Positions 7,633-48,545 of a stretch of 64,000 nt of DNA are shown here, one piece after another. Numbering within the stretch: the first letter of the stretch is position 1; each line of letters opens with the position of its first letter. A program made the translations under genes and the position numbers. Source of the DNA: Octopus sinensis (Eukaryota); the NCBI RefSeq assembly GCF_006345805.1, contig NC_042997.1:152458001-152522000 (forward strand), in the 5' to 3' direction. The notes beneath the pieces were generated by a model that saw nothing but the letters and a program-made list of their open reading frames with translations, was not told the origin of the DNA and ran no database searches.

Positions 7633-7674
7633 CAGCTTTTTGCTTTTGCACATGCAATATTGATTTTAAAATAA

Positions 7675-8250
7675 GGCGGCGAGCTGGCAGAAACGTTAGC
7701 ACGCCGGGCGAAATGCTTAGCAGTATTTTGTCTGCCGCTACGTTCTGAGTTCGAATTCCGCCGAGGTCGACTTTGCCTTTCATCCTTTCGGGGTCGATTA
7801 AATAAGTACCATTTACGCACTAAGATCGATATAATCGACTTAATCCGTTTGTCTGTCCTTGTTTGTCCTCTCTGTGTTTAGCCCCTTGTGGGTAGTAAAG
7901 AAATAGATATTTCGTCTACCGTTATGTTCTGAGTTCAAATTCCGCCGAGGTCGACTTTGCCTTTCATCCTTTCGGGGTCGATAAATTAAGTACCAGTTAC
8001 GCACTGGGGTCGATGTAATCGACTTAATCCCTTTATCTGTCCTTGTTTGTCCCCTCTATGTTTGGCTCCTTGTGGGCAATAAAGAAATAAGAAACGTTAA
8101 CACACCGGGCGAAATGCTTAGCGGTATTTCGTCTGTCTTTACGTCCTGAGTTCAAATTCTGCCGAGGTCGACTTTGACTTTCATCTTTTCGGGGTCGATA
8201 AATTAAGTACCCCTCCCCCAAAATGTTCGGGCCTTGTGCCTTGAGTAGAA
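7675..8250 (+). mobile_element. Family N SINE trimeric array
   Basis: Head ggcggcgagctggcagaaacgttagc. Two Tx1-type tails (~7845-7905, ~8030-8089) are each followed by resumed SINE body; ancestral tail at the end. Confidence 0.9.
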
Positions 8251-10230: not shown

Positions 10231-13175
10231 ACATCAGAGGACTGCAAACACTCAGTAACAGGACAAAAATCCCGTTCCTGAGAGATTTTGTTGCATGCAA
10301 TCAAGCCTTATGCATAGCACTAACGGAAACGCACCTGAAACCGGATATAGCAGATGCGGAGTTACACATACCACAGTATGCTGTACTACGGACCGACAGG
10401 AAAGAAAGGAGTCATGGAGGTGTTGCTATGTACATCCGTGAGGACCTCACACCCCAGGTCCTCTTGTCATACTCAAACTCGGTGTGTGACACACTAATTG
10501 TACATATTAGGCAACTTGATGTAGTTGTGTGTGCTACATATCGCCCTCCAGATGCCCCAAGCCATGTGGGCAAGTTTGAAGACTGCCTTATAAAAATAGA
10601 AGTTCTAACCACATTAGAACAACACATAAGTGTACTTCTTATGGGAGACTTCAATCTGCCAAATGTCAGATGGCCCGAGGGCCTTTCTCTCCCAGGAATG
10701 ACAAGATGTGAACGAGGACAGGCGAGGTCCCTCCTGAACCTCATCAACACCCTGTACATGGAGCAGGTAATACTCCAACCAACCAGGGCAGGTAACACAC
10801 TGGATCTCTGCTTCACAAATGACATGGATCTCATCCATAATGTGAAAGTGACACCGACACTACTCTCGGATCACAACATGATAGAGCTGACCATGTACGG
10901 GCCAAAAGAGAGCACGGACATGCAGCCTACAAGAAACCCCCAGAATCTTTCCAGCTTGAACTACCATAAGGCAAACTGGAAACAAATTGAGAAAGAGATC
11001 CTCAAACAAAACTGGCCTAAATGTCTCTCCTCGCCAGACATCGACGTGAAACTTCAACAATTCATGTCTGTAATGCAAGCCATATGCTACAAATATGTCC
11101 CAGAGAGAAAGGCCACTGTACACAAGAACAAAATCCCCAGAGAGAGGAAAATTCTAATGAGACGGCGTACAAAATTTTCAAATCGCCTAAACAAACAGAT
11201 TGAAAGCAGTGAAAAGTCCCGCCTAAAAATAAAACTGTTGGAAATCGAAAAATGTCTGAAACTCTCCCATGAAAAGGAAAGAGCAGACAAAGAAGCCTGG
11301 GCTATAGACAACATAAAATCTAACCCCAGAGCTTTCTACAGGTATGCCAAAGAAACAGCTACGGTGCACTGTAGAATAGGGCCACTCCTCGAAAAGGATG
11401 GCACACTTACAGGAAAACCAATGAGGGTAAGTGAAATACTGAATGAGCAATTCAAGAGTGTTTTCACTCCACCCCTTGCACATCTCCAAATCACCAATCC
11501 AACTGACTTTTTTACCACTGCAGATATAAAATCAGAGGCGGCGACGATAGATTACATCGATATAAAGGAAGACGATGTAATCAAGGCTATAGATGAAATG
11601 AAAACAGACTCAGCTACTGGCCCCGATGGATTCCCGGCAATCCTCCTAAAAGCATGTAAGAGAGTCCTAGCAAGACCACTGCAGTTCCTCTTTCAGAGCT
11701 TCCTTGCAGCTGGCAAACTTCCAAGAAAACTGAAGGAAGGTAAAATATGCCCCATTCATAAAGGAGGTAGCAGAGCGGAAGCCAAGAACTATAGACCTAT
11801 CTCTCTGACCTCACACATCAGCAAGGTCATGGAACGAATAGTCAGAAGGAAGCTGATCACCTTCCTTGAAGAAAATGACTTGCTGCCCGACACCCAACAT
11901 GGTTTCCGACCAGGGAGAAGCTGTTTAACTCAGCTCCTACAACACTATGACTGGGTGCTGAAACGGCTGCTCAACCACTCAAATGAGGAAGTGATATATC
12001 TCGACTTTGCAAAGGCCTTTGATAAAGTCGATCATGGAATGATATGTCACAAACTGCGTGATCTCAACATAGTTGGAAAACTGGGAGAATGGCTTCATGA
12101 CTTTCTGAAAGATAGAAGTCAGGTGGTAGTGGCCAATGGGGCCACTTCCATTAACACGCAAATAGTGAGCGGTGTTCCGCAGGGCACTGTTCTGGGACCT
12201 CTACTGTTCATAATGGCCCTCTCAGACATGCCCTCAGCCACGCAGAGAGCCACGATCACAAGTTATGCAGATGATACAAAAGTTTCACAGGCAATACAGA
12301 ACCCTGAGGACACAAAACACCTGCAATGTGAGCTAGACAAAATATACAAGTGGGCCGAAAAGAATAGCATGCAGTTCAATGCTGAAAAGTTTCAAGCTCT
12401 ATACTATCAGCATGCAAAACTAAATGCAATACCCAATGAATACACTGGACCCGGAGGAATAGCAATCCCAGAGGCACAATCAGTGCGTGACCTAGGTATT
12501 TACATGAGTGATGACGCGACCTTTCGTGTACATGTTGCTAAATTGGCAATGAAATGTAGACGACTGGCCGGATGGATCCTCAGAACCTTTAGAACAAGAG
12601 AACAAGAAACCATGATGGTCCTCTGAAGGACACTTGTCCTATGCCACTTTGACAACTGCTCTCAGTTATGGTCACCATCCAGTGTCAAGTTGATCACAGA
12701 GCTCGAGGCGATCCAACGTAGCTACACGAAGAAGATAGCCTCTATGCAGAATGTAAGCTACTGGGAAAGACTCAAGAAATTAAAATTATATTCCCTGGAG
12801 CGTAGGCGGGAAAGATATGCCATAATATACATCTGGAAGATCCTGGAGGGAAGTGTCCTGAACTTTGGCATCGAGAGTTACGCAAATGCCAGAACTGAGC
12901 GCCACTGCGTGGTGCCTAGGACTCCAAACTTGCCATCAAGATGTAGGACAAGATTCTGTGATAGCCTGGGCTTCCGAGGCCCACAGCTCTTCAATATCCT
13001 CCCGAAGAACCTGAGAGACCTGCATGGGGTGGATACAGATGTCTTTAAAATGAAGCTGGATCTCTTCCTGTCAGGTGTCCCAGATGAACCAACTTCACGG
13101 CAGGAGGGGCAGATGAGGGCAGCTGCATCGAACTCTCTCATGCACCAAATAGCAGTTGCTAGAAAGCCTTCATGA
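10182..13175 (+). pseudogene. LINE ORF2 (APE endonuclease + reverse transcriptase) with one premature TGA at 12624-12626
   Basis: LNIRGL, ALTETHL, YRPP, MGDFN, LDLCFT, SDH, GPDG, NYRPISL, QHGFR, LDFAKAFDKV, GVPQG, YADDTK, DLG. ORF 12690-13175 continues in the same frame (YSLERRR). Confidence 0.92.
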
Positions 13176-18856: not shown

Positions 18857-19049
18857 TATATATGATCATCTTGCCTGTAAAGTTATTCAAAGCTAACAAG
18901 TTGTCCAATTTTTTAAAACTGCCATCATTTCAGTTAATAAAAATGCCTAACAGTGTGATATGTTGCTACATTCTTTTGGTGCATCTTGTCGTTCTTTGCT
19001 TCAGCAGCAGAAGTTTGTCTACTTTTGCTTCAATATTTTATTACCTTTA

Positions 19050-20798
19050 GGCGGCGAGTTGGCAGAAACGTTAGCACGCCACTCGGTGTTTGTGTTGTTA
19101 ATATTCGGCTGTGCTGAACAAGGTGAGATTGTTAATATTAAATTTGTTATATTATTAGAACTGTTAACATTGCTATTTGCTTGTTAAAAGCATTGTTGTC
19201 TCTAATTCCCCCACGGCGGTGGGAATTATATGAATTGATTTGAATTGTTTTGAAAACGAAATCTTTTTGGGGCAATAAGCCTGTAGGAAAAAAATTGTTT
19301 TTATTGGCGTGTTTGCCACAATGGATTTCAATAAAGAATACCCGTGTTTGTCACCAGTATCACCAACCTCACGAATCTTATCTCCGGTGGTATCGCTGAA
19401 AAAAAAAAGAAGAAATGCTTCAAAGGGAATTTATGAATCTAAAAAGGGACATTGACGTTCCAAGTATAAAAAATAGAGTGTCAAGTGCGGCTCCAGCAGG
19501 AAAAAAATGTTTTGCTTAGGCAACAGGAGGAAAAATAAGACAAATTACGACAGAGGAAAGCAAATTGCTGAAATATAAAAATAAGACACAAAAGTGGAAG
19601 TAATTCCACCAAAAGAATTAATGAAGGCTGAGAAAAGAAAAGTAACTATATATAAAACTTTTAATGCTAAATCCAAGAAAATAGATAAAGTAAAGGAGGA
19701 AGCAGTAGAAAAATGTTTAAAGAACATTTGGAAAGATATTGAATACATCACAAGAGAAAGAAGGTTCGGCACTGGATGTTCGAATGGTGAGCGAGGAGAA
19801 AGCTCAAATTCATTCAATAGAATCATTGAGAACAAACGAGGTAATTCCCATGTATATGGGGAGGAGAACCTCCCAAGGAAGAATAACTAGAATCCCACCA
19901 GAAATGGATGCAGTCCGGTTGGTGGCGGCTGTGACGATGGACTTGGAGGGAAAAAAATCACACTTCTCCAAGCCACCGCCACGGAAAAACAAGATTGGCG
20001 AGGCCAAACACTAAACATATTAATCCAGACGGAACTTCAGACGCTGGAAGAAATTCCAGAGACCATTGAGATAGGGGAGGAAGACCTTGTAGTATTTATA
20101 GAGGGCAGAAAACTGACCCACCTGATTTCCTGACGAAAGAAGGTAAGAATTGTTTTCTCATAGTAGTTGCAATCGCGAAAGAAGCGGTATGGAAGACGAG
20201 AATGAAAGGAGTAATGACAGACAGCTTCATCACTGGCCTCGACCTACAAAGATATTTCGCTTTTCATTTAAAAAGGAATGTGAGGCTGGAAAGAAGATGC
20301 CTGTCAGAGAAAATGTTTAATGATAGATGGAAGTATGTGATACAAATGTTGTGCATGAGTGTAACCATGTGAATATGACAAAGGTCTACCACCGATATCA
20401 GTAGGGGATTGGGGCTCGTAGGGCCAGGAACTTAACCATCACTCCATCTGTTTTGTCTTTTGTTGTGTTTATCATTCGTATTTATATTTTGTATTGAATT
20501 TTTAATATTACCTTAATGTTATACTATTTGTTTGTATCTGACCTCAAAATCAGATTATGTTGTCCCCTCTATGTTGGCCCCAAGTGGACAATAAAAAATC
20601 GAGAAACATTAGCACGCCGGGCGAAAAGCTTAGTGGCATTTCGTCCGTATTTACGTTCTGAGTTCAAATTCCGCCGTGATCGACTTTGCTTTTCCTTCTT
20701 TCAAAGTTAATAAAATAAGTAACAGTTGAGCACTGGGATCAATGAAACTGACTTTCCTCTCTACCGAACCTACTGGCTCTTGTGCTAAAATTTGAAAC
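19050..20798 (+). mobile_element. Family N SINE host interrupted after its head (19050-19080; resumes 20602)
   Basis: ggcggcgagttggcagaaacgttagcacgcc ... agaaacattagcacgccgggcgaaaagcttag...aaatttgaaac. Confidence 0.85.
19081..20601 (+). mobile_element. Tx1/L1-like non-autonomous derivative (ORF1 part + ORF2 C-terminus + 3' UTR) with 17-bp TSD
   Basis: ORF1-like peptide is homologous to the one at 44028-44656 (RRFGT, PMYMGR, LVAAV). C-terminus FLIVVAIAKEAVWKTR is homologous to 24775. TSD matches 16/17. Confidence 0.8.
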
Positions 20799-20799
20799 A

Positions 20800-21195
20800 A
20801 ATAGGCGCAAGCAATGCTGTGTGGATAGGCGCAGGCTTGGTTGTTTTGTAAAGATCTTGCTTCCCAACCACATGGTTCCGAGTTCAGTCCCACTGCATGG
20901 AACCTTGGGCAAGTATTTTCTACTATAGCCTCGGGATGATTAAACCCTTGTGAGTGGATTTGATAGACGGAAACTGAAGGAAGCTCCTATCTGTATTTGT
21001 TCCCCTAGCATTGCTTGACAACTGATGTTGGTGTGTTTATGTTCCCGTAACTTAGCGGTTCGAAAAAGGAGACCGATAGAATAAGTACCAGGTTTACAAA
21101 GAGTAAGTCCTACGATAAATTTCTTCGACTAAAACGCGGTGCTCCAGCATGTCCACAGTCAAACTGACCGAAACAAGTAAAAGAATACAAGAATA
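20800..21195 (+). mobile_element. Family C SINE with duplicated head start
   Basis: ataggcgca occurs twice, then the full body to gaaacaagtaaaagaa. Confidence 0.88.
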
Positions 21196-23682: not shown

Positions 23683-25143
23683 GTCCTCGGGGAGGCCGGG
23701 TTTGGCCCGACTTTCCGCGGTTGGATTGTTGCTTTGCACAACAATATCTTCCGAGTGAATGGTTTTTTTAAAATCAAAACCGTTCAAGATTGAACGCTCA
23801 GTACGCCAGGGATGTTCGCTGTTACTGCTTGTGTATGTATTGGCTCTTGAACCATTGCTGCGGAAGTTGGAGGTGTTAGGGAGCGTGCCGAATGATCTGT
23901 GGTGTGGAAGAGGAGCTACTGCGTATGCGGATGACATCTGCATCACCGTGCCTGAAGAAGGGCAGCTTCCTTATGTGGAAAACGCCATCAAAGGATACGA
24001 GGCGGTTGCAGGAGCAAAGGTTAACCAGGACAAGTCGGTCGGCTTGCAACTCGGCACCTGGAGGGGCAAGTCGATGTCATCCAATAACAACGTGGGGTGT
24101 TGGACAGAAGGTCCGTGTAAGTTGCTAGAGGTCTGGTTCAGTACAAACCTCCAGATAGAGAAGAATTGGAGCGAGGTCATGGGCAGAATAACTGCCCTAA
24201 CCCAGACTTGGTCTGGGCGGGTGTTATCCTTGCTAGGGAGGGTAGTGGTGTGCAGATGTTCATAGCATCTGCTATCACCTGCTGCCTGACTGTTGTGCCT
24301 TGCCCCGATTTGTGACCGAACAAGTTGGAAAGAATCCTTTTCCATTTTTTGTGGAAGGGAGGAAAGTCACTTGTGAAGCGCCCTGTCTGCTGCCAAAAAT
24401 CGCAAAAGGAGTTCCACTGCGGATTTCTATTGCGTGTTAGTGGAATTTATGTCAGACGATGTCCTGGGGGAGACGTTGGGCTTCGATGGAAATCAGTTGA
24501 TCAACCCGTTCAGGAGAACTTTCGGGCCGGGGGTATCTGGATAATTACCAGAAATCCCTGGCTTGGCAGTGATACCGTTCGGCTTTGCCTATTCAAGAGG
24601 TGCGGGCGGGACAGAGAAACTGTCTTGCACGCCTTCATGGAGTGTCCGGAATTATCGGGACTGATAGCTTTTGTCGATCAACTGCTGTCAACGATGGGAA
24701 GAGTACAGCTATCGGCTGAGTTTATTATCAAGTTTGTGTCACCCGCTTCCCGTAACGGGGAAAGGAAGGCTTGTTTTTTGTGCGTAGTAGCCATACTGAA
24801 AGAAACAGTATGGAAGACGCGTGTTAGTGGTATAGTGACAGGTACTTTCGTCTCCGGCCAGGTGTTGGTTAACTTCATTTGTTACCACAGTAAAGGTTCG
24901 AACCTGGCGGTTGAATGCCTTTCCTTCAGTCACACGTTGCAAAATTTGCAATGATCATCAAGCTTATATTGAAATTTTTAAAAGGAAAAAAAAAAAAGAT
25001 ATAATTTTTAACAGCATGACATTTGTATTTTATCGTTCGAAACTTTTTCCTTCGTAATAAGCAACTTCTTCCCCTCTACGTTTGTCTGTCCTTGTTTGTC
25101 CCATCTATGTACGGCTTTCATGGCCAAATTATGAAATAAAGAA
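23683..25143 (+). mobile_element. 5'-truncated Tx1/L1-clade LINE (RT and C-terminal relic)
   Basis: VRQGCSL..LALEPLL, AYADDI, KVNQDKS, FLWKG, C..CGRDRETVLHAFMECP. 3' tail tttgtctgtccttgtttgtccc...aataaagaa. Confidence 0.88.
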
Positions 25144-29436: not shown

Positions 29437-30275
29437 GCTCGGGTTAAATGACGATTTTTATGTCTCCTTTTTTTCAAGGACAGCTTGATGTATTGGTGAA
29501 CAGCGTTGGAGAGCATAAAGGTTAAAGTTGGCGTTGAGAAAAAGTTAGTTGATATGGAGGACTGGAAGCCGTTTGAATATTGGAAAATAATGATTCGCAT
29601 TGGGTATAAAACTGCCGATATGAGTACAGCTCAATGCTCTGTGAACATTGTAAAATCTGTAAGTCGTGACGTGGACAGCTGCAACGGAGACTACGAAAAC
29701 ATAGCCAGCAGGAAGGGATACAACAAATGTTCTGATTGCGTGTGCATGCCTGGATTCATCACAAATCCTCGAACAGGGTCTTAGGTTCAATTCAGACGGT
29801 TTTGTAAAGCTGCTGGAGACTAGTAAATTCCTGGTTGAAGAGGTCTACTACTAGAAGGTCATATGTATGGCAGTACGATTCGGTTCCTTGCCATAATTCC
29901 AGAAAGAGCCGGATGTGGTTGTCGGAGAATTTTTACAACTTCACCATCTCCAATTTCTGGGATCCTTGTCCCCACTACTGTAATCCCATGGATTACAGTA
30001 AAAAAGACTCCAACCGGTGTGCCTGCAACATCAAGTCCGAGCTGGTAGCGAAGGTGTTCGAAGATCTTCCCAGCGACACAGTGAGGAATGCATTCACCAG
30101 ATTCCGGAACCGTCTTGAGGCCGTTGTGGAAGCTGACGGTGGCTACTTTGAGAAAACTGTTATCTCCCAGCCATAATCTAGCTATTATTTTTTAAGTTTA
30201 AAAAATGCTTTTATCTTTATACCGGATAGTGTGTTTTCTTGTCTATAGCTTTGCTATTATGTTAAACTGTCGTTG
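29432..30275 (+). mobile_element. Tc1/mariner-superfamily relic (DD37D/maT-like)
   Basis: YVWQYDSVPCH..W..NFW..CNPMDY..FRNRLEAVVEADGGYFE. Confidence 0.8.
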
Positions 30276-30497
30276 TTTGAAACTTGACCAAATGCGTTTT
30301 TTTTTCAATATTTATTTTTTCTTGCAATAGCCGGTTCTTTTTGTCAAACTATCGTATCTCCAGTTGCTTCAGGCGTCAAGATATCAAAACCTGTCAAAGT
30401 GTAGTAAAACGGTTTTGCTATGGAATGGTGAAACTATTTTTCGTTTTCTGAAAAAGCAGCGGTTTGGACTTACGACACATTTGCATAATAGCAACGA

Positions 30498-31433
30498 TCT
30501 ATCTATCTCTCTCTCTCTCTCTCTCTCTCTCGATATATATATATATATATATATATAAATACATACACATATATAGACACATATATATATATACATATAC
30601 ATATATACACATATATATATATATACATATACATATATATAATACATATATAGACACATATACATATATATACATATACATATATATATATATACATTAT
30701 AGACACATATACATATATAGCCTATACATATATATATATATACATATATATTATATCATATATATATATATATACATTATATATTATCCATATTATAATC
30801 ATATATATATATACATATACATATATTATACTATATATATACATATATATATACATATATATATACATATATATATACATATATATATACATATATATAT
30901 ACAACATATATACATACATAATACATACATATAACATACATTATATATAACATACATATATATATCCATACATATATACATACATATATACATACATATA
31001 TATATACATATATATATACAATATATATACATATATATACATATATATATATATATATACATATATACATATTATAACATACATATATACATACATATAC
31101 AATACATATATCCATACATATATACATACATATATATATACATACATATCCTATATATATACATATAATATACATCATTATACATACATATAATCCTATA
31201 TATATACATATATATATACATATATATACATATATATATACATTATATACATATATATATACATATATATACATATATATATACATATATATACATATAT
31301 ATATACATATATAATACATATATATATATATATATATACATCTATATATATACATATATTACATATATATACATATATACATAATATATACATATATATA
31401 TACATATATTATATATATATATATATATACTTA

Positions 31434-31499
<66 letters not shown>

Positions 31500-31625
31500 C
31501 ATATATATATAATATATCATATATATATATATATATATATCTAAATATATATATATATATATAATATATATTATATACTATATTTATATATATATATATA
31601 TAATTATTATATATATTACATATAC

Positions 31626-31684
<59 letters not shown>

Positions 31685-31705
31685 ACTATATATATATATA
31701 TATAC

Positions 31706-31763
<58 letters not shown>

Positions 31764-32010
31764 CATCTATATATATATATATACATATATATATTATATA
31801 TACATATAATATATATATACATTATAATATATACATATATATATTATATATATATACATATATATACTATATCTATATATACATATATATACATATATCT
31901 ATATACATAATATACATAATATATCATATATAATACATATATATATACATATATATACATATATATACATATATATACACATATATATACATGTATATAT
32001 ATATACATAC

Positions 32011-32041
<31 letters not shown>

Positions 32042-32097
32042 ATATATTATATATATATATATATACATATATTAATATATACATATATTATATATAC

Positions 32098-32150
<53 letters not shown>

Positions 32151-32267
32151 CATATATATATTATACATATATATATTATACATATATATATATATATATA
32201 TACATATATATACTATATATATTACATATCTACATATATATATATACATATATATATATAATATACA

Positions 32268-32299
<32 letters not shown>

Positions 32300-32424
32300 C
32301 CTCATATATATATATACATATATATACATTCTATATATACATATACATAATATATATATATATACATATATATACTATACATATATATAGATATATATAC
32401 ATATATATACAATACATATTATAC

Positions 32425-32461
<37 letters not shown>

Positions 32462-32580
32462 CATATATACTATATACATATATATAATATATACATATAA
32501 TATTATATATATATATATACATATATATACATATACATATATATACATATTATATATACATATATTATTCATATATATAC

Positions 32581-32614
<34 letters not shown>

Positions 32615-32626
32615 CATATATATACA

Positions 32627-32660
<34 letters not shown>

Positions 32661-32724
32661 CAATTATATATATATATACTATATATATATACTATATATA
32701 TATATACATATATATATTATATAC

Positions 32725-32755
<31 letters not shown>

Positions 32756-32792
32756 CATTATATATATATACATATATATATATACAGTATAC

Positions 32793-32829
<37 letters not shown>

Positions 32830-33184
32830 CATATATATATACATATATAACAGATATATACATATATATATACACATATAATATATATATACACACATAT
32901 CTATATATATATACACACATATATATATATACACACATATATATATATATACACACATATATTATATATACACACACACAATATATATATATTACACACA
33001 TATATATATATACACACCTATATATATATATACACACATATATATATATATATACACACTATATATAATCTATATATATATATATTATACATATATACAT
33101 ATACCATATATATACATATACACCTATATATATAATATATATAATATCATTATATACATATACACATATATATAACATATAACA

Positions 33185-33226
<42 letters not shown>

Positions 33227-33316
33227 CATATATACCTATACACATATATATCATATACACATATATATATATATATCTATATATATATATACATATACAC
33301 ATATATATATATATAT
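30498..33316. repeat. 2.8-kb degenerate (TA)n/(TATACA)n tract
   Basis: Visible; source of all the YIYI ORFs. Confidence 0.97.
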
Positions 33317-34474
33317 GTGGCTGCACACTTCCTAAAAGACAGAAACAGGCAGTTGTGAGCAATGGAGCCACCTCCAGGGAAACGCAAATAACAAGCGGTG
33401 TCCCACAGGGCACTGTCTTGGGCCACTGATGTTCATAGTGGCCCCTTTCAGACATGCCTTCAGTTGCTACGATGACCACCCTTGCTAGCTATGCAGATGA
33501 CACAAAGGTCTCCCACGCAATACAGAACCCTGAAATATTGCGCATCTGCAACATGAGCTGGACACAATATACAGGTGGGCTGAGGACAACAACATGCAGT
33601 TTAATGCAGGTAAGTTCCAGGCCCTGCGCTACTGGCACACAAAGGTAAATGACGTGAAGACTGGATACACTGGCCCAGGAAGATTGCAATCCCTGAGTCA
33701 AAATCAGTGCGTGACCTGGGCATTGACATGAGCAATGATGCATCTTTCCAAATGCATATGCTAATCTGGTGATAAAATGCAGACGCTAGCTGGATGGATT
33801 CTCCGAACTTTCAGAACAAGAGAGAAGGAGACACTGATGGTCCTATGGAAAACATTTGTCCTCAGCCGCTTGACTACTGCTCCCAACTTTGGTCACCACA
33901 CAATATAAAAAAACAGCAGAACTCGAAGCAACTCAGAGAAGCTACACAAAAAAATCGTCTCAATGCAAAATGTCAGCTACTGGGAAAGACTGAAGGTATT
34001 AAACTCTTCTCCTCCCTGGAGCGGAGGCGGAGAGATATGCAGTAATATACATCTGGAAAATCCTGGAGGGTCTTATCCCAAACTTTGGCATTCAAAGTTA
34101 CTCCAACCGCAGAACGGGCGCCGCTGCGTGGCCAGGATTCCAACATCACCATCAAAATACAGGTCCAGATACTGCAACAGCTTGGGTTTTCAGAGGACCA
34201 CAGCTTTTCAACATCCTCCCTAAATGCCTGAGAGACTTACATGGTGTGGATGTGGGTTTCTTTTTAAACTAACTGGATCTCTTCTTGTTGGAAGTCCCAG
34301 ATGAACCTACCTCACGACAGGAGACGCGGATGCGGGCAGCACATCGAACTCCCTTGTTGATCAAGTGCCACGTATCAGAGGTGGATTCACAAACTAGTGT
34401 GGCTCATTCAGCGGTGGTGCCCCAGCATGGCCGCGGCCTTCGGGCTAAAACATTTTTAAGGATTTAAGGATTTA
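33317..34474 (+). mobile_element. 5'-truncated CR1/L2-group LINE related to 9589-13265
   Basis: SGVPQGTVLG, SYADDTK, SYWERLK, VPDEPTSRQE. Tail ggtgccccagcatggcc...(AAGGATTT)n; many frameshifts. Confidence 0.92.
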
Positions 34475-43131: not shown

Positions 43132-44833
43132 GCTATTTCTTTATTACCCATAAAAAGGCTATACAAAGATGCTTGATGATATAAGACAACACAACATAAG
43201 GACAGTACAAAACATAAACTCGAGGAACTAAAATGATAAAAAGTGGGGAACGAGTAAGAAGAAAAAGAAAAGAAAACGAATGATATGAAAGAATGACAAG
43301 ATGAGGCACAGTGCGCACTCGACCCCCGAAATCAAGTGGTTACATTAATACATGATTTTTACAGTCTTCTTTTTCTTTTCATTTTTAACATTAAAAGTTC
43401 ACATTAAAACATGATTTTACAGTCTTTTCTTTTTTTATTTTTAAAATTAAATGTCCACCTGTTCAATTTTCCTTCTTATAGCCTCATACTCCACCACAGA
43501 CGGCGGAATGTCACGCAACCATATCAGGTCGATCATTTTTGCAACTTCTCCGAATGTATCCAAAAATCTCTCATGCCTGTCGTCCTGTACCAAAACACCC
43601 CTGTCATGTACGTCAAATTCTTCTCTGGGCAGCTTCACCCTCGCCACTCCCTTCCACTTTCCTATTCTTTTCTCCACCTCTGCACTTTTTTTCGTAGATT
43701 ATCAGCATACCCTTATAATTACATTCTACTTCAGTTGCTTCTATTTCCACCATTTGCGTACTTTTAGGTTTAAGTTGCTACTTACATTTTTGTGGCTTCT
43801 TGGTTTCTGTTGAATGTCTCTTGCCTTTGTTGTTTTTCTTCTTTTTGGGTTGATAAAGTCATCACTCCCCTCTTTCACTTCGATCCTTTCCTTCTCCTTT
43901 ACATCGTTGGCGCGCTCAGCATCACCTCTATTCTCTCTCGTTTCTATTTTCTTTTCCATCTCCTTTTCTTTTCCCTGTTCCTCCTCATTTACACTCAGCG
44001 TAAATTCAAACAAGGGACACTGAACCTTCAGCCTTCCTCCTTCCTCAGTCTCAATATTTTAGGGGATTCGGTCAATGTCTTCGAAAGTGGCAAAAAAGCC
44101 ACATTTCGACTACGAATCTCCACCAGTTTCGCCTCTTCGTCTCTCCACACTGGTCCTAATTCAGGGTTGTTTTCTGTTGTCGCCAAAATGGCTGCAACCA
44201 ACCACTCGGCTTTAATTTCGAGTGGCATACTTGGTATTCTAATCCTCACGCTAGGCCTTCCCATGTAAGAGGGTAACAGCGTCACCTTTTCTGTTCCGAG
44301 GATGTTGATGGAATCCTAGGCTGCTTCTTCCTTGGTGGCAAACCTGACCGCCACCGTACCGAATTTTCTACCTCTACCAATTTATTCTGCTTCTTTAACT
44401 ATGTCACCCAAACACTCCTCTATGTCTTCTTCCAACAGTCTTTCAACTTACTGGTGGCGACCGCCTGTGTGAGGTACACCACCGTCATTTCTTCCTTTTC
44501 CTTCATCGTCTCCTGCGGAGGCATCAGCTTGATGGTATCTCCTTTCTTCTTCACCAACTGTTCATTCTTCAAAAACTTCTCCATATCTATCACTACCGGC
44601 GTTACTTCCATTGGCGCAACTGCTTTCGCCGCAGTGGCTTTTACATAGCTCGCCATAATACGGCTACGTTTCTCCTTTCACCTAAAATGGTGGTGGTGGT
44701 GGGAGAACAATGAAAACACAACAACCGCAACAAACAACACGCTCGCGCGGTAACAACAAATTCAACAAAATTTCTCTACAAGTCTCAAAAGCACAACCTT
44801 TCTCCTCGAAGACTCCGGTCAGAATGACTCATC
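43132..44833 (-). mobile_element. Tx1/L1-like ORF1-only derivative with 14-bp TSD
   Basis: ORF1 from 44656 (MASYVKA..GRKFGTV..PSYMGR..WLVAAIL). Tail atgggtaataaagaaata. TSD ataat(c/t)ctgtaaag at 43118-43131 and 44834-44847. Confidence 0.78.
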
Positions 44834-47289: not shown

Positions 47290-48545
47290 CTTGTTTTTTT
47301 ATTGCCCACAAAGGGGCCAACGAAAAGGGGACAAAAAAGGACATGTGGGGACATAGAACAAACAAAACAAAGTAAAAAACAACAACACAAAAACGTATAT
47401 TACAAGATGAATGATAAATGAAATGAAGTTCCACAACCCCACCTCTGAGTCGCTTCATTTATACCTTTTAGTCACTTTTTATACTTCGTACCTACCAGTA
47501 TATCGAACTTGTACTCCTCCAACAACCGTACTTACGTCAATTGCCACGGCAATTTGTCTATGTCCAAGTCCATATCCCAAATTTTGTATCCGCTTTTAAA
47601 CTGATTTTTTTCCTTTTGTTCTTCGCTCAATAAGAGACCGCAATGCCATCCTTGAACGTTATCATATTTATTTGTTTCAACTGCTCTGATATCTTTCCAT
47701 GTTTTTATCTCTTCGGACAGATTTCTGTTTGAATTGTCATACATTAGTGCGTAATGATCCCTTTTCATTTTTCCGGAGGTGGGGAAGTTTGAGGGCTTGT
47801 TTCTGTATGCGATTTTTTGTGTCAGAGAATGGGGTAGGTTCAGCGTCTGTAAGGGGAGGTTGGGAGGAAAAGGGTGTGGTGGATGTTGGGTGGTTGTGGG
47901 ATGGGTTTCTGTATCTGTTTTGCTTGGCTTTTTTCCATATTTTTTTCCATAATTTTTTTCTCGCACGATGTGGGCCTCGTGTTTCTTTATGCACCAAAAT
48001 ACTTTTGCATTTGAACTTCACTCGCATTTTCTGCCCGACTCGATTTTGTTCCGATACAGCTATATATTACTGTGTATCATTGCATGCTTTCTATTACACC
48101 AGATGGTGGTTTTAGAGTTATTTGTCGTCCATTCTCTTTTTAGAGTTTGTCTAGTTAGTTCTAAGTCAAAGTGGTTTAGATAGAATTTTTCTATATCTCT
48201 TCAGGCGCTTGCAAAGGAGCTTACCTTTCGCAGTTGCCTCGCTGTGCACGTTGTTGTTAGCGCTTACGTAACATATAGAAATTTGTGCCTTTGTGTTTCT
48301 GTTGGAGGTTGCGGTGATGTTGTTTCTTTTTACTCGTAGAGAAATCCCGCTTGTTGAGGTAGTGTTAGTGACGACATTGACGTTGAGAGAGATTGCATTT
48401 CCTTCAAAATTGTCTTTTTCGTTTTTTGTCTCACTTGTAGTTGTTGTTATTCACTTGTCTTTGTTGATGTTTCGATCGGCATTTGTAGAGGCAACGTTGG
48501 TGGTTGTTGTAGTGTTCTATTTTAAGAGTGAGAATGCGGCATCTA
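47290..48545 (-). mobile_element. Tx1-like derivative whose 3' end abuts a degenerate family N body (47165-47290)
   Basis: Minus-strand tail gtccccttttcgttggcccctttgtgggcaataaaaaaa resembles the tails at 20560 and 8050. Interior decayed. Confidence 0.55.

Follow-up and report, generated by a model that had tools for sequence, protein, structure and literature searches.

SINE heads as preferred insertion sites of a small LINE subfamily and of the SINE itself in Octopus sinensis

The locus described here, a LINE that interrupts the head of a SINE, raises the question whether SINE heads are preferred insertion sites and, if so, for which elements. The window, by which we mean the whole stretch of 64,000 nucleotides that was analyzed, comprises positions 152458001-152522000 of contig NC_042997.1, and the genome searched measures 2.72 Gb. 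SINE positions are numbered with window 7676-7905 as the reference unit, and features lie on the + strand unless indicated otherwise. The 5' part of the host SINE (19049..19080) is 97% identical to SINE positions 1-30 and has an A-box-like motif inside, and its 3' part (20602..20800) runs from position 14 to the end and carries an old tail that is not of the LINE clade. Between these parts lies an internally deleted LINE of 1,521 bp (19081..20601), probably of the L1/Tx1 type, which is the sole copy in this form. The left copy of its 17-bp target-site duplication (TSD; 19064..19080) begins at SINE position 14 and shares 16 of 17 letters with the right copy (20602..20618). Removal of the LINE and one TSD copy restores a host with a gap-free alignment over SINE 1-166 and the old tail at its end, which confirms the earlier note's reading of a 1.5-kb LINE in a SINE head. 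Within the LINE, a broken remnant of ORF1 with stops and frame changes (19312-20112; 31% amino acid identity to ORF1 of the intact relative L326) abuts, at the deletion point, the last ~85 codons of ORF2 (20109..20372), of which 20109-20351 shows 59% identity to the last 81 amino acids of the ORF2 of an intact relative. The 3' UTR (20373..20601) ends in the C/A type of the clade tail, which is common to the young SINE. Relative to the copy L044, ~3.2 kb is missing.

The identity of the window LINE was taken solely from its relatives, because its own four ORF pieces gave no Pfam match (0 of 4). The intact relatives L324 and L326 carry the endonuclease, reverse transcriptase (RT) and zf-RVT domains (PF03372, PF00078 and PF13966), and the subfamily member L042 contains RVT_1. 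The architecture is that of an ORF1 followed by an ORF2 with an APE endonuclease, an RT and a C-terminal zinc domain, and the copies show a TSD, a constant 3' end and a varying 5' end. The best PDB match of an intact relative's ORF2 was human LINE-1 ORF2p (E 1e-65), with R2 at 3e-26, and over the RT the PDB matches were L1 and R2 ORF2 proteins only. The nearest named relative of the LINE protein was an Argonauta sequence, and protein searches, a cluster look-up and an atlas yielded no relative bearing the name Tx1. Judged by its relatives, the window LINE is of the L1/Tx1 type and, by its architecture and motifs, a putative member of the Tx1 clade.

A search with the 3' 300 bases of the window LINE gave 40 matches, 30 of which were examined. 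All four copies of the subfamily proper (89-100% identity; the window copy, L002, L003 and L004) end at SINE position 14, versus none of the 26 relatives (25 distinct) at 68-79% identity. A young sister family gave the same negative result for all of its 26 tails (from 27 loci, one of which lacked a LINE tail), which brings the distant relatives at position 14 to 0 of 52. The four close copies differ in 5' extent and in host SINE subfamily and therefore represent separate insertions; the probability that three further copies would fall on the same base by chance is ~4e-7, even given the AGAA motif. The claim of the earlier note that a LINE lineage targets the SINE head is supported by these four copies, whose hosts are independent. 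All four copies are broken, and both TSDs are visible for the window copy only; in the stretches examined for L002-L004 an upstream host head was not found. Genome searches with the 5' part, an RT-side stretch, and junction and 3' UTR patterns recovered no intact or further members. Of the five matches to the junction pattern, two were known already, two were SINE dimers and the fifth was a LINE-type 3' end from a different family at position 14 (L061), for which the upstream host was not found. A tree of 3' ends, which contains two long rows and omits L003 and L004 (deleted tail, too short), groups the window copy with L002 and places these next to L005, whose target differs. We conclude that a preference of this small and old LINE subfamily for SINE position 14 is supported (n=4).

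The sister LINEs have targets of their own. The earlier note had pointed to the element at 47290..48545 (- strand) as a second case; its tail type is indeed the same and there is a degenerate SINE behind it, but in a comparison with the SINE head the first 26 bases did no better than shuffled sequences (1003/2000). This candidate was rejected, as no TSD was detected (291/2000 shuffles) and none of the 29 relatives examined lies at position 14 or 47, and it is retained as a further element with the clade tail for which SINE targeting is unsupported. At L197 a tail of the 47290 type has been amplified as an 87-bp tandem repeat of 8 units. The young sister family (L323-L329; G000:C9:76598000-76625356) has copies with an intact ORF1 (461 aa) and ORF2 (1132 aa), counted 2,429 candidates at first look and includes tandem arrays; 9 of its 26 tails share one insertion site, within a ~500-bp repeat in which an ORF1-like piece is present. 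Several other LINE subfamilies (L015, L018 and L021; L008, L009 and L011; L023, L024 and L182; L170-L184) each have a common downstream sequence, which is another repeat, sister-LINE sequence or a short GAT motif. Target preference thus differs among sister subfamilies, each with its own fixed targets in other repeats, and the clade shows a radiation of targets. Rapid target change among sister families is a known Tx1 pattern according to PMC4494074. A related tail is also carried by another short repeat (L112, L137 and L140), which terminates in (TATC)n microsatellites.

The same site recurs in the SINE array at 7674-8250. Its first unit (7674..7905) ends in a T-type LINE-clade tail and is followed by position 47 of the second unit (7906..8089; SINE 47-230), whose C-type tail is followed by position 14 of the third (8090..8250; position 14 to the end), the likely host with an old tail. 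As the earlier note had stated, the 3' junction of the window LINE equals that at 8089/8090, in that both resume at SINE position 14, and the tails at both places are of the C/A type. Fragments of this SINE (family N) made up 29,655 of 1,000,000 bases in 100 evenly spaced 10-kb stretches. The median identity to the window unit was 76% for old copies, which have other tails, and 90% for young copies, which have the LINE-clade tail. LINE clade and SINE share ~45-60 bases of tail and have both the 3' tail and the insertion signature in common, as expected of a SINE-LINE pair; the AGAA target is common to the window LINE's subfamily and the SINEs with a C-type tail, and the same C/T tail variants are present among the LINE subfamilies. 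The ages agree: the divergence of SINE copies from their majority is 5-7%, and that between pairs of LINE copies 9-13%. The idea that the SINE borrows its tail from this LINE held in part: the tail is that of the LINE clade and the C type is shared, but the whole clade has it and other members match it better than the window LINE does, with scores against the SINE tail of 62-72 versus 42. Four tails showed no strong conserved hairpin (z -2.4 to +0.4). The SINE head contains an A-box-like motif (2 mismatches) and a B-box-like motif (1 mismatch, recognized by eye as the strict pattern missed it), and neither ARAGORN nor Rfam gave a match to it; we call the SINE putatively tRNA-derived on these A- and B-box-like motifs only. 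At L043:1030-1320, SINE body 92-167 is fused directly to 209 bp of LINE 3' UTR at the tail-swap position; this joint looks like a fossil of tail capture and may be one, with deletion as an alternative.

To where do the SINE copies go? A random megabase contained 71 tail hits, of which 54 were kept after filtering on flank length and alignment score. Of these junctions 15 were at position 47, 2 at position 14 and 37 elsewhere; a third case at position 14 was seen by eye among those dropped by the filters. The threshold of Kojima (2015) for a target-specific family, >20% of flanks in one repeat, is thus exceeded by the SINE (17 of 54 random junctions) as well as by the LINE (4 of 4). The junctions elsewhere have TSDs of ~13-20 bases that start at AGAA, GGTAT or TATA-like motifs, and a strict TSD test verified 34 of the 107 non-self junctions from all loci. 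Genome-wide, exact matches numbered 47,143 for tail plus GGTA, 8,613 for tail plus AGAA and 5,501 for C/A-tail plus AGAA. Among the matches listed, C-type tails occurred in 83 of 100 AGAA junctions versus 4 of 100 GGTA junctions (odds ratio 117). Junctions of a C-tail with AGAA resumed at position 14 in 13 of 30 cases, compared to 102 of 14,320 AGAA sites (0.7%), a 61-fold enrichment (p 1e-20). GGTA junctions resumed at position 47 in 22 of 40 cases (a 23rd was recognized by eye) versus 44 of 5,154 sites, where the 40 derive from the first 56 among the matches listed with array neighbours skipped. The link between tail type and site is real, position 14 being the minor self site and position 47 (GGTAT) the dominant one; the numbers of junctions extrapolated from the exact patterns are ~26,000 for position 47 and ~2,400 for position 14. 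No LINE was found to end at position 47. The hosts at position 14 are diverse and mostly belong to the old-tail SINE subfamily, and upstream of the insertion sites there is a preference for G at -3 and for G at -2 with T at -1. A motif of 4-5 bases is insufficient for a 60-fold enrichment, so that context, homology or read-through RNA must contribute. In L227 and L245, the ends of old-tail SINEs join the host near position 14 via AGAAT microhomology.

The junctions could reflect either insertion or duplication. A pattern for head fragments with a new head behind them had 7 matches at position 14: two clean nests, L228 and L229, in which the TSD has host-specific letters, and five that are partial or 5' duplications. 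The same pattern gave 51 matches at position 47; of 19 places viewed ~13 were nest-like and four were head multimers, and at least four nests (L233, L247, L255 and L259) have host-specific letters on both sides. Visible nests are scarce compared to the thousands of seamless head-to-tail dimers. Where a dimer's host has the AGAAT variant, this variant is also present in the upstream head in 9 of 17 assignable cases (30 loci), versus 2 of 25 otherwise (p 0.003). The 21 position-14 dimers shared 22 of 52 minor alleles at 47-62 and 16 of 65 at 63-100, where shuffles gave 7.6 and 3.6 and reached the observed values in 0 of 1000. Among 50 position-47 dimers an excess of shared alleles was present at 63-100 only, with none at 47-62 or beyond 100. 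From these data we infer that homology often serves to join the cDNA to the host; later gene conversion between neighbours could add to the signal. Arrays of 5-7 regular units also exist, and whole arrays are flanked by unique-site TSDs. Multimers of a 65-67 bp SINE head (1-62), with up to 11 pattern hits, were observed at L234, L236, L249, L260 and G000:C3430:1370-2212, and end where a position-47 TSD would end. Together, the regular long arrays and the 65-bp head multimers suggest that DNA-level expansion inflates the junction counts.

The reading we prefer, with a probability of around 0.7, combines motif-preferring LINE endonucleases, trans-mobilisation via the tail, two motifs in the SINE head and 5' joints by homology. 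The sites, the TSDs, the enrichment, the shared tail and the covariation of tail and target were directly observed, and the remaining steps we infer. LINE endonucleases would prefer the short motifs G-N-N|AGAA and G-Y|GGTAT, which are present in the SINE head, and the young, LINE-tailed SINE subfamily would accordingly enter its own family at positions 14 and 47. The ORF2 protein may bind the shared 3' tail and reverse-transcribe the SINE RNA at its nick (target-primed reverse transcription), with C-type and T-type tails probably served by different LINE subfamilies. When the target is a SINE copy, the cDNA would often join the host by homology and not at its own 5' end, and a joint of this kind leaves, in place of a visible nest, two units linked head-to-tail without a seam, with the promoter intact. 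As around two thirds of the insertions occur at the same motifs elsewhere, the SINE still disperses and the loop is leaky.

This leakiness bears on the closed LINE-SINE-target loop of the earlier note, in which, taken strictly, the LINE targets the SINE head only and the SINE borrows the tail of that same LINE. The four of four LINE copies at position 14 and the common C-type tail fit such a loop, but 37 of the 54 random and 17 of the 30 C-tail plus AGAA junctions lie outside the SINE, the main self site is position 47, for which no LINE partner was found, the hosts at position 14 mostly have old tails, and the tail is clade-wide with the window LINE not its best match. The strict loop is therefore contradicted for the SINE, for the LINE it concerns n=4 only, and as a whole we consider it quite improbable. 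A tentative alternative, to be taken more seriously, is that RNA reading through into the downstream target pairs with the nicked DNA, so that master copies set the site of their daughters; masters in a SINE head would then aim back at the head. Tail variants of 1-2 bases and body haplotypes (positions 156, 172 and 199) track the target class, the majority unit lacks a run of four Ts, which makes read-through possible, and AGAA targets outside the SINE are similar to the position-14 sequence over bases 8-12 (p 0.003; 1 of 6 windows tested). RNA-target pairing is moreover reported for SART1Bm and R1Bm in PMC7265360. However, the C/T tail variants also occur among the LINE subfamilies, so that protein partners can explain the link as well, the GGTA targets have no clear match past base 7 (p 0.07), and no read-through RNA would include the bases preferred upstream (-3 G, -2 G/-1 T). 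Somewhat speculatively, the SINE could even home to itself, its RNA end programming a motif that is found in its own head and homology 5' joints rebuilding the promoter. If so, each round would make old, dead SINEs into new multi-unit masters, and target choice would be inherited via RNA in cis, which would explain the many targets of the LINE clade.

Position 14 lies inside the A-box-like motif, and a second tRNA-like SINE family (window 20802-20990) has insertions in its head, at the corresponding AGAAG or GGTAAG motif, in L270, L292 and L345. These observations, i.e. 2 of 17 other AGAA targets (L270 and L292) and 1 of 18 other GGTA targets (L345), could mean that tRNA-like SINE heads act as decoys for the D-loop of tRNA genes as the true target. 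Yet the remaining 15 of the 17 AGAA targets do not resemble tRNA, a single tRNA gene was detected by ARAGORN in the LINE loci, and we saw no tRNA gene interrupted by a LINE or SINE, which renders this option unlikely. That there is no targeting at all, with dimers stemming from DNA-level duplication or a few composite masters and the LINE hits from chance or hitch-hiking, would agree with the regular 5-7 unit arrays, the head multimers and the unique-site TSDs around arrays, and unequal recombination has been proposed for bivalve SINE arrays (PMC11481361). Considering the nests with host-specific TSD letters, the diverse and mostly old-tail hosts at position 14 and the chance of ~4e-7 given above for the three further LINE copies, we regard this as very improbable. 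The preferred reading, of motif-preferring endonucleases and tail-mediated mobilisation, is the one compared below with known systems.

The closest system is that of the crocodilian Tx1-Mar LINEs and their SINEU passengers, which target Mariner-N4_AMi (Kojima 2015, PMC4494074). There too, as described in that source, a Tx1-type LINE and a SINE share a preference for an abundant repeat and have matching ages, the target has two hot spots for different LINE families, SINEs insert in tandem, and the preference is leaky (13-90% of copies). In that system a DNA transposon serves as a third-party target and the LINE and SINE were not found to have a tail in common, whereas in octopus the head of the SINE itself is targeted, a tail of ~45-60 bases is shared and dimers are seamless. 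Xenopus Tx1L resembles the octopus LINE in that it sits with a TSD at a fixed site in a mobile element, Tx1D (cited in PMC4494074), although that target is a non-autonomous DNA transposon and not a SINE mobilised by the clade. Keno, which targets U2, and Kibi and Koshi, which target microsatellites (cited in PMC4494074), are other Tx1 members with fixed targets, but these targets are host genes or microsatellites.

Dewa is a further target-specific member of the Tx1 clade and inserts at tRNA arrays. Tandem SINE arrays in bivalves (PMC11481361) and SINE satellites in squamates (PMC10702118) are ascribed to unequal recombination in these reports and, as described there, are likewise head-to-tail multimers with one TSD and 5'-truncated later units; the octopus arrays differ in that their start positions match the insertion motif and that nests show true insertion. 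Octopus SINEs or L1-Tx1 elements are mentioned in PMC4758252, PMC8967140 and PMC9795677, in the relevant passages without reference to targeting. In the literature searched, the scope of which excluded Repbase, older cephalopod SINE papers and the 2015 octopus genome paper, no paper was seen to describe a SINE that a Tx1-type partner directs to the head of that same SINE. Compared to Tx1-Mar/SINEU, the novelty lies in the targeting of the passenger SINE's own head, of which an earlier description may exist. In the preferred reading, SINE dimers and arrays by the tens of thousands in this SINE-rich animal genome would originate from insertion, although such structures are commonly attributed to recombination. 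They also offer a natural series of related APE-type LINEs, some of them intact and young, with varied targets and a large record of passenger insertions. This series suits the question whether the endonuclease or RNA read-through sets the target, and bears on RNA-programmed insertion tools.

The window contains further traces of such elements, namely a broken ORF2 of the same clade (23774-24894, +), a piece of ORF1 (44034-44447, -) and a distant RT (11160-12284, +). Its stretch 30001-34000, with a GC content of 18-23% and a strong GC skew, probably consists of simple repeats.
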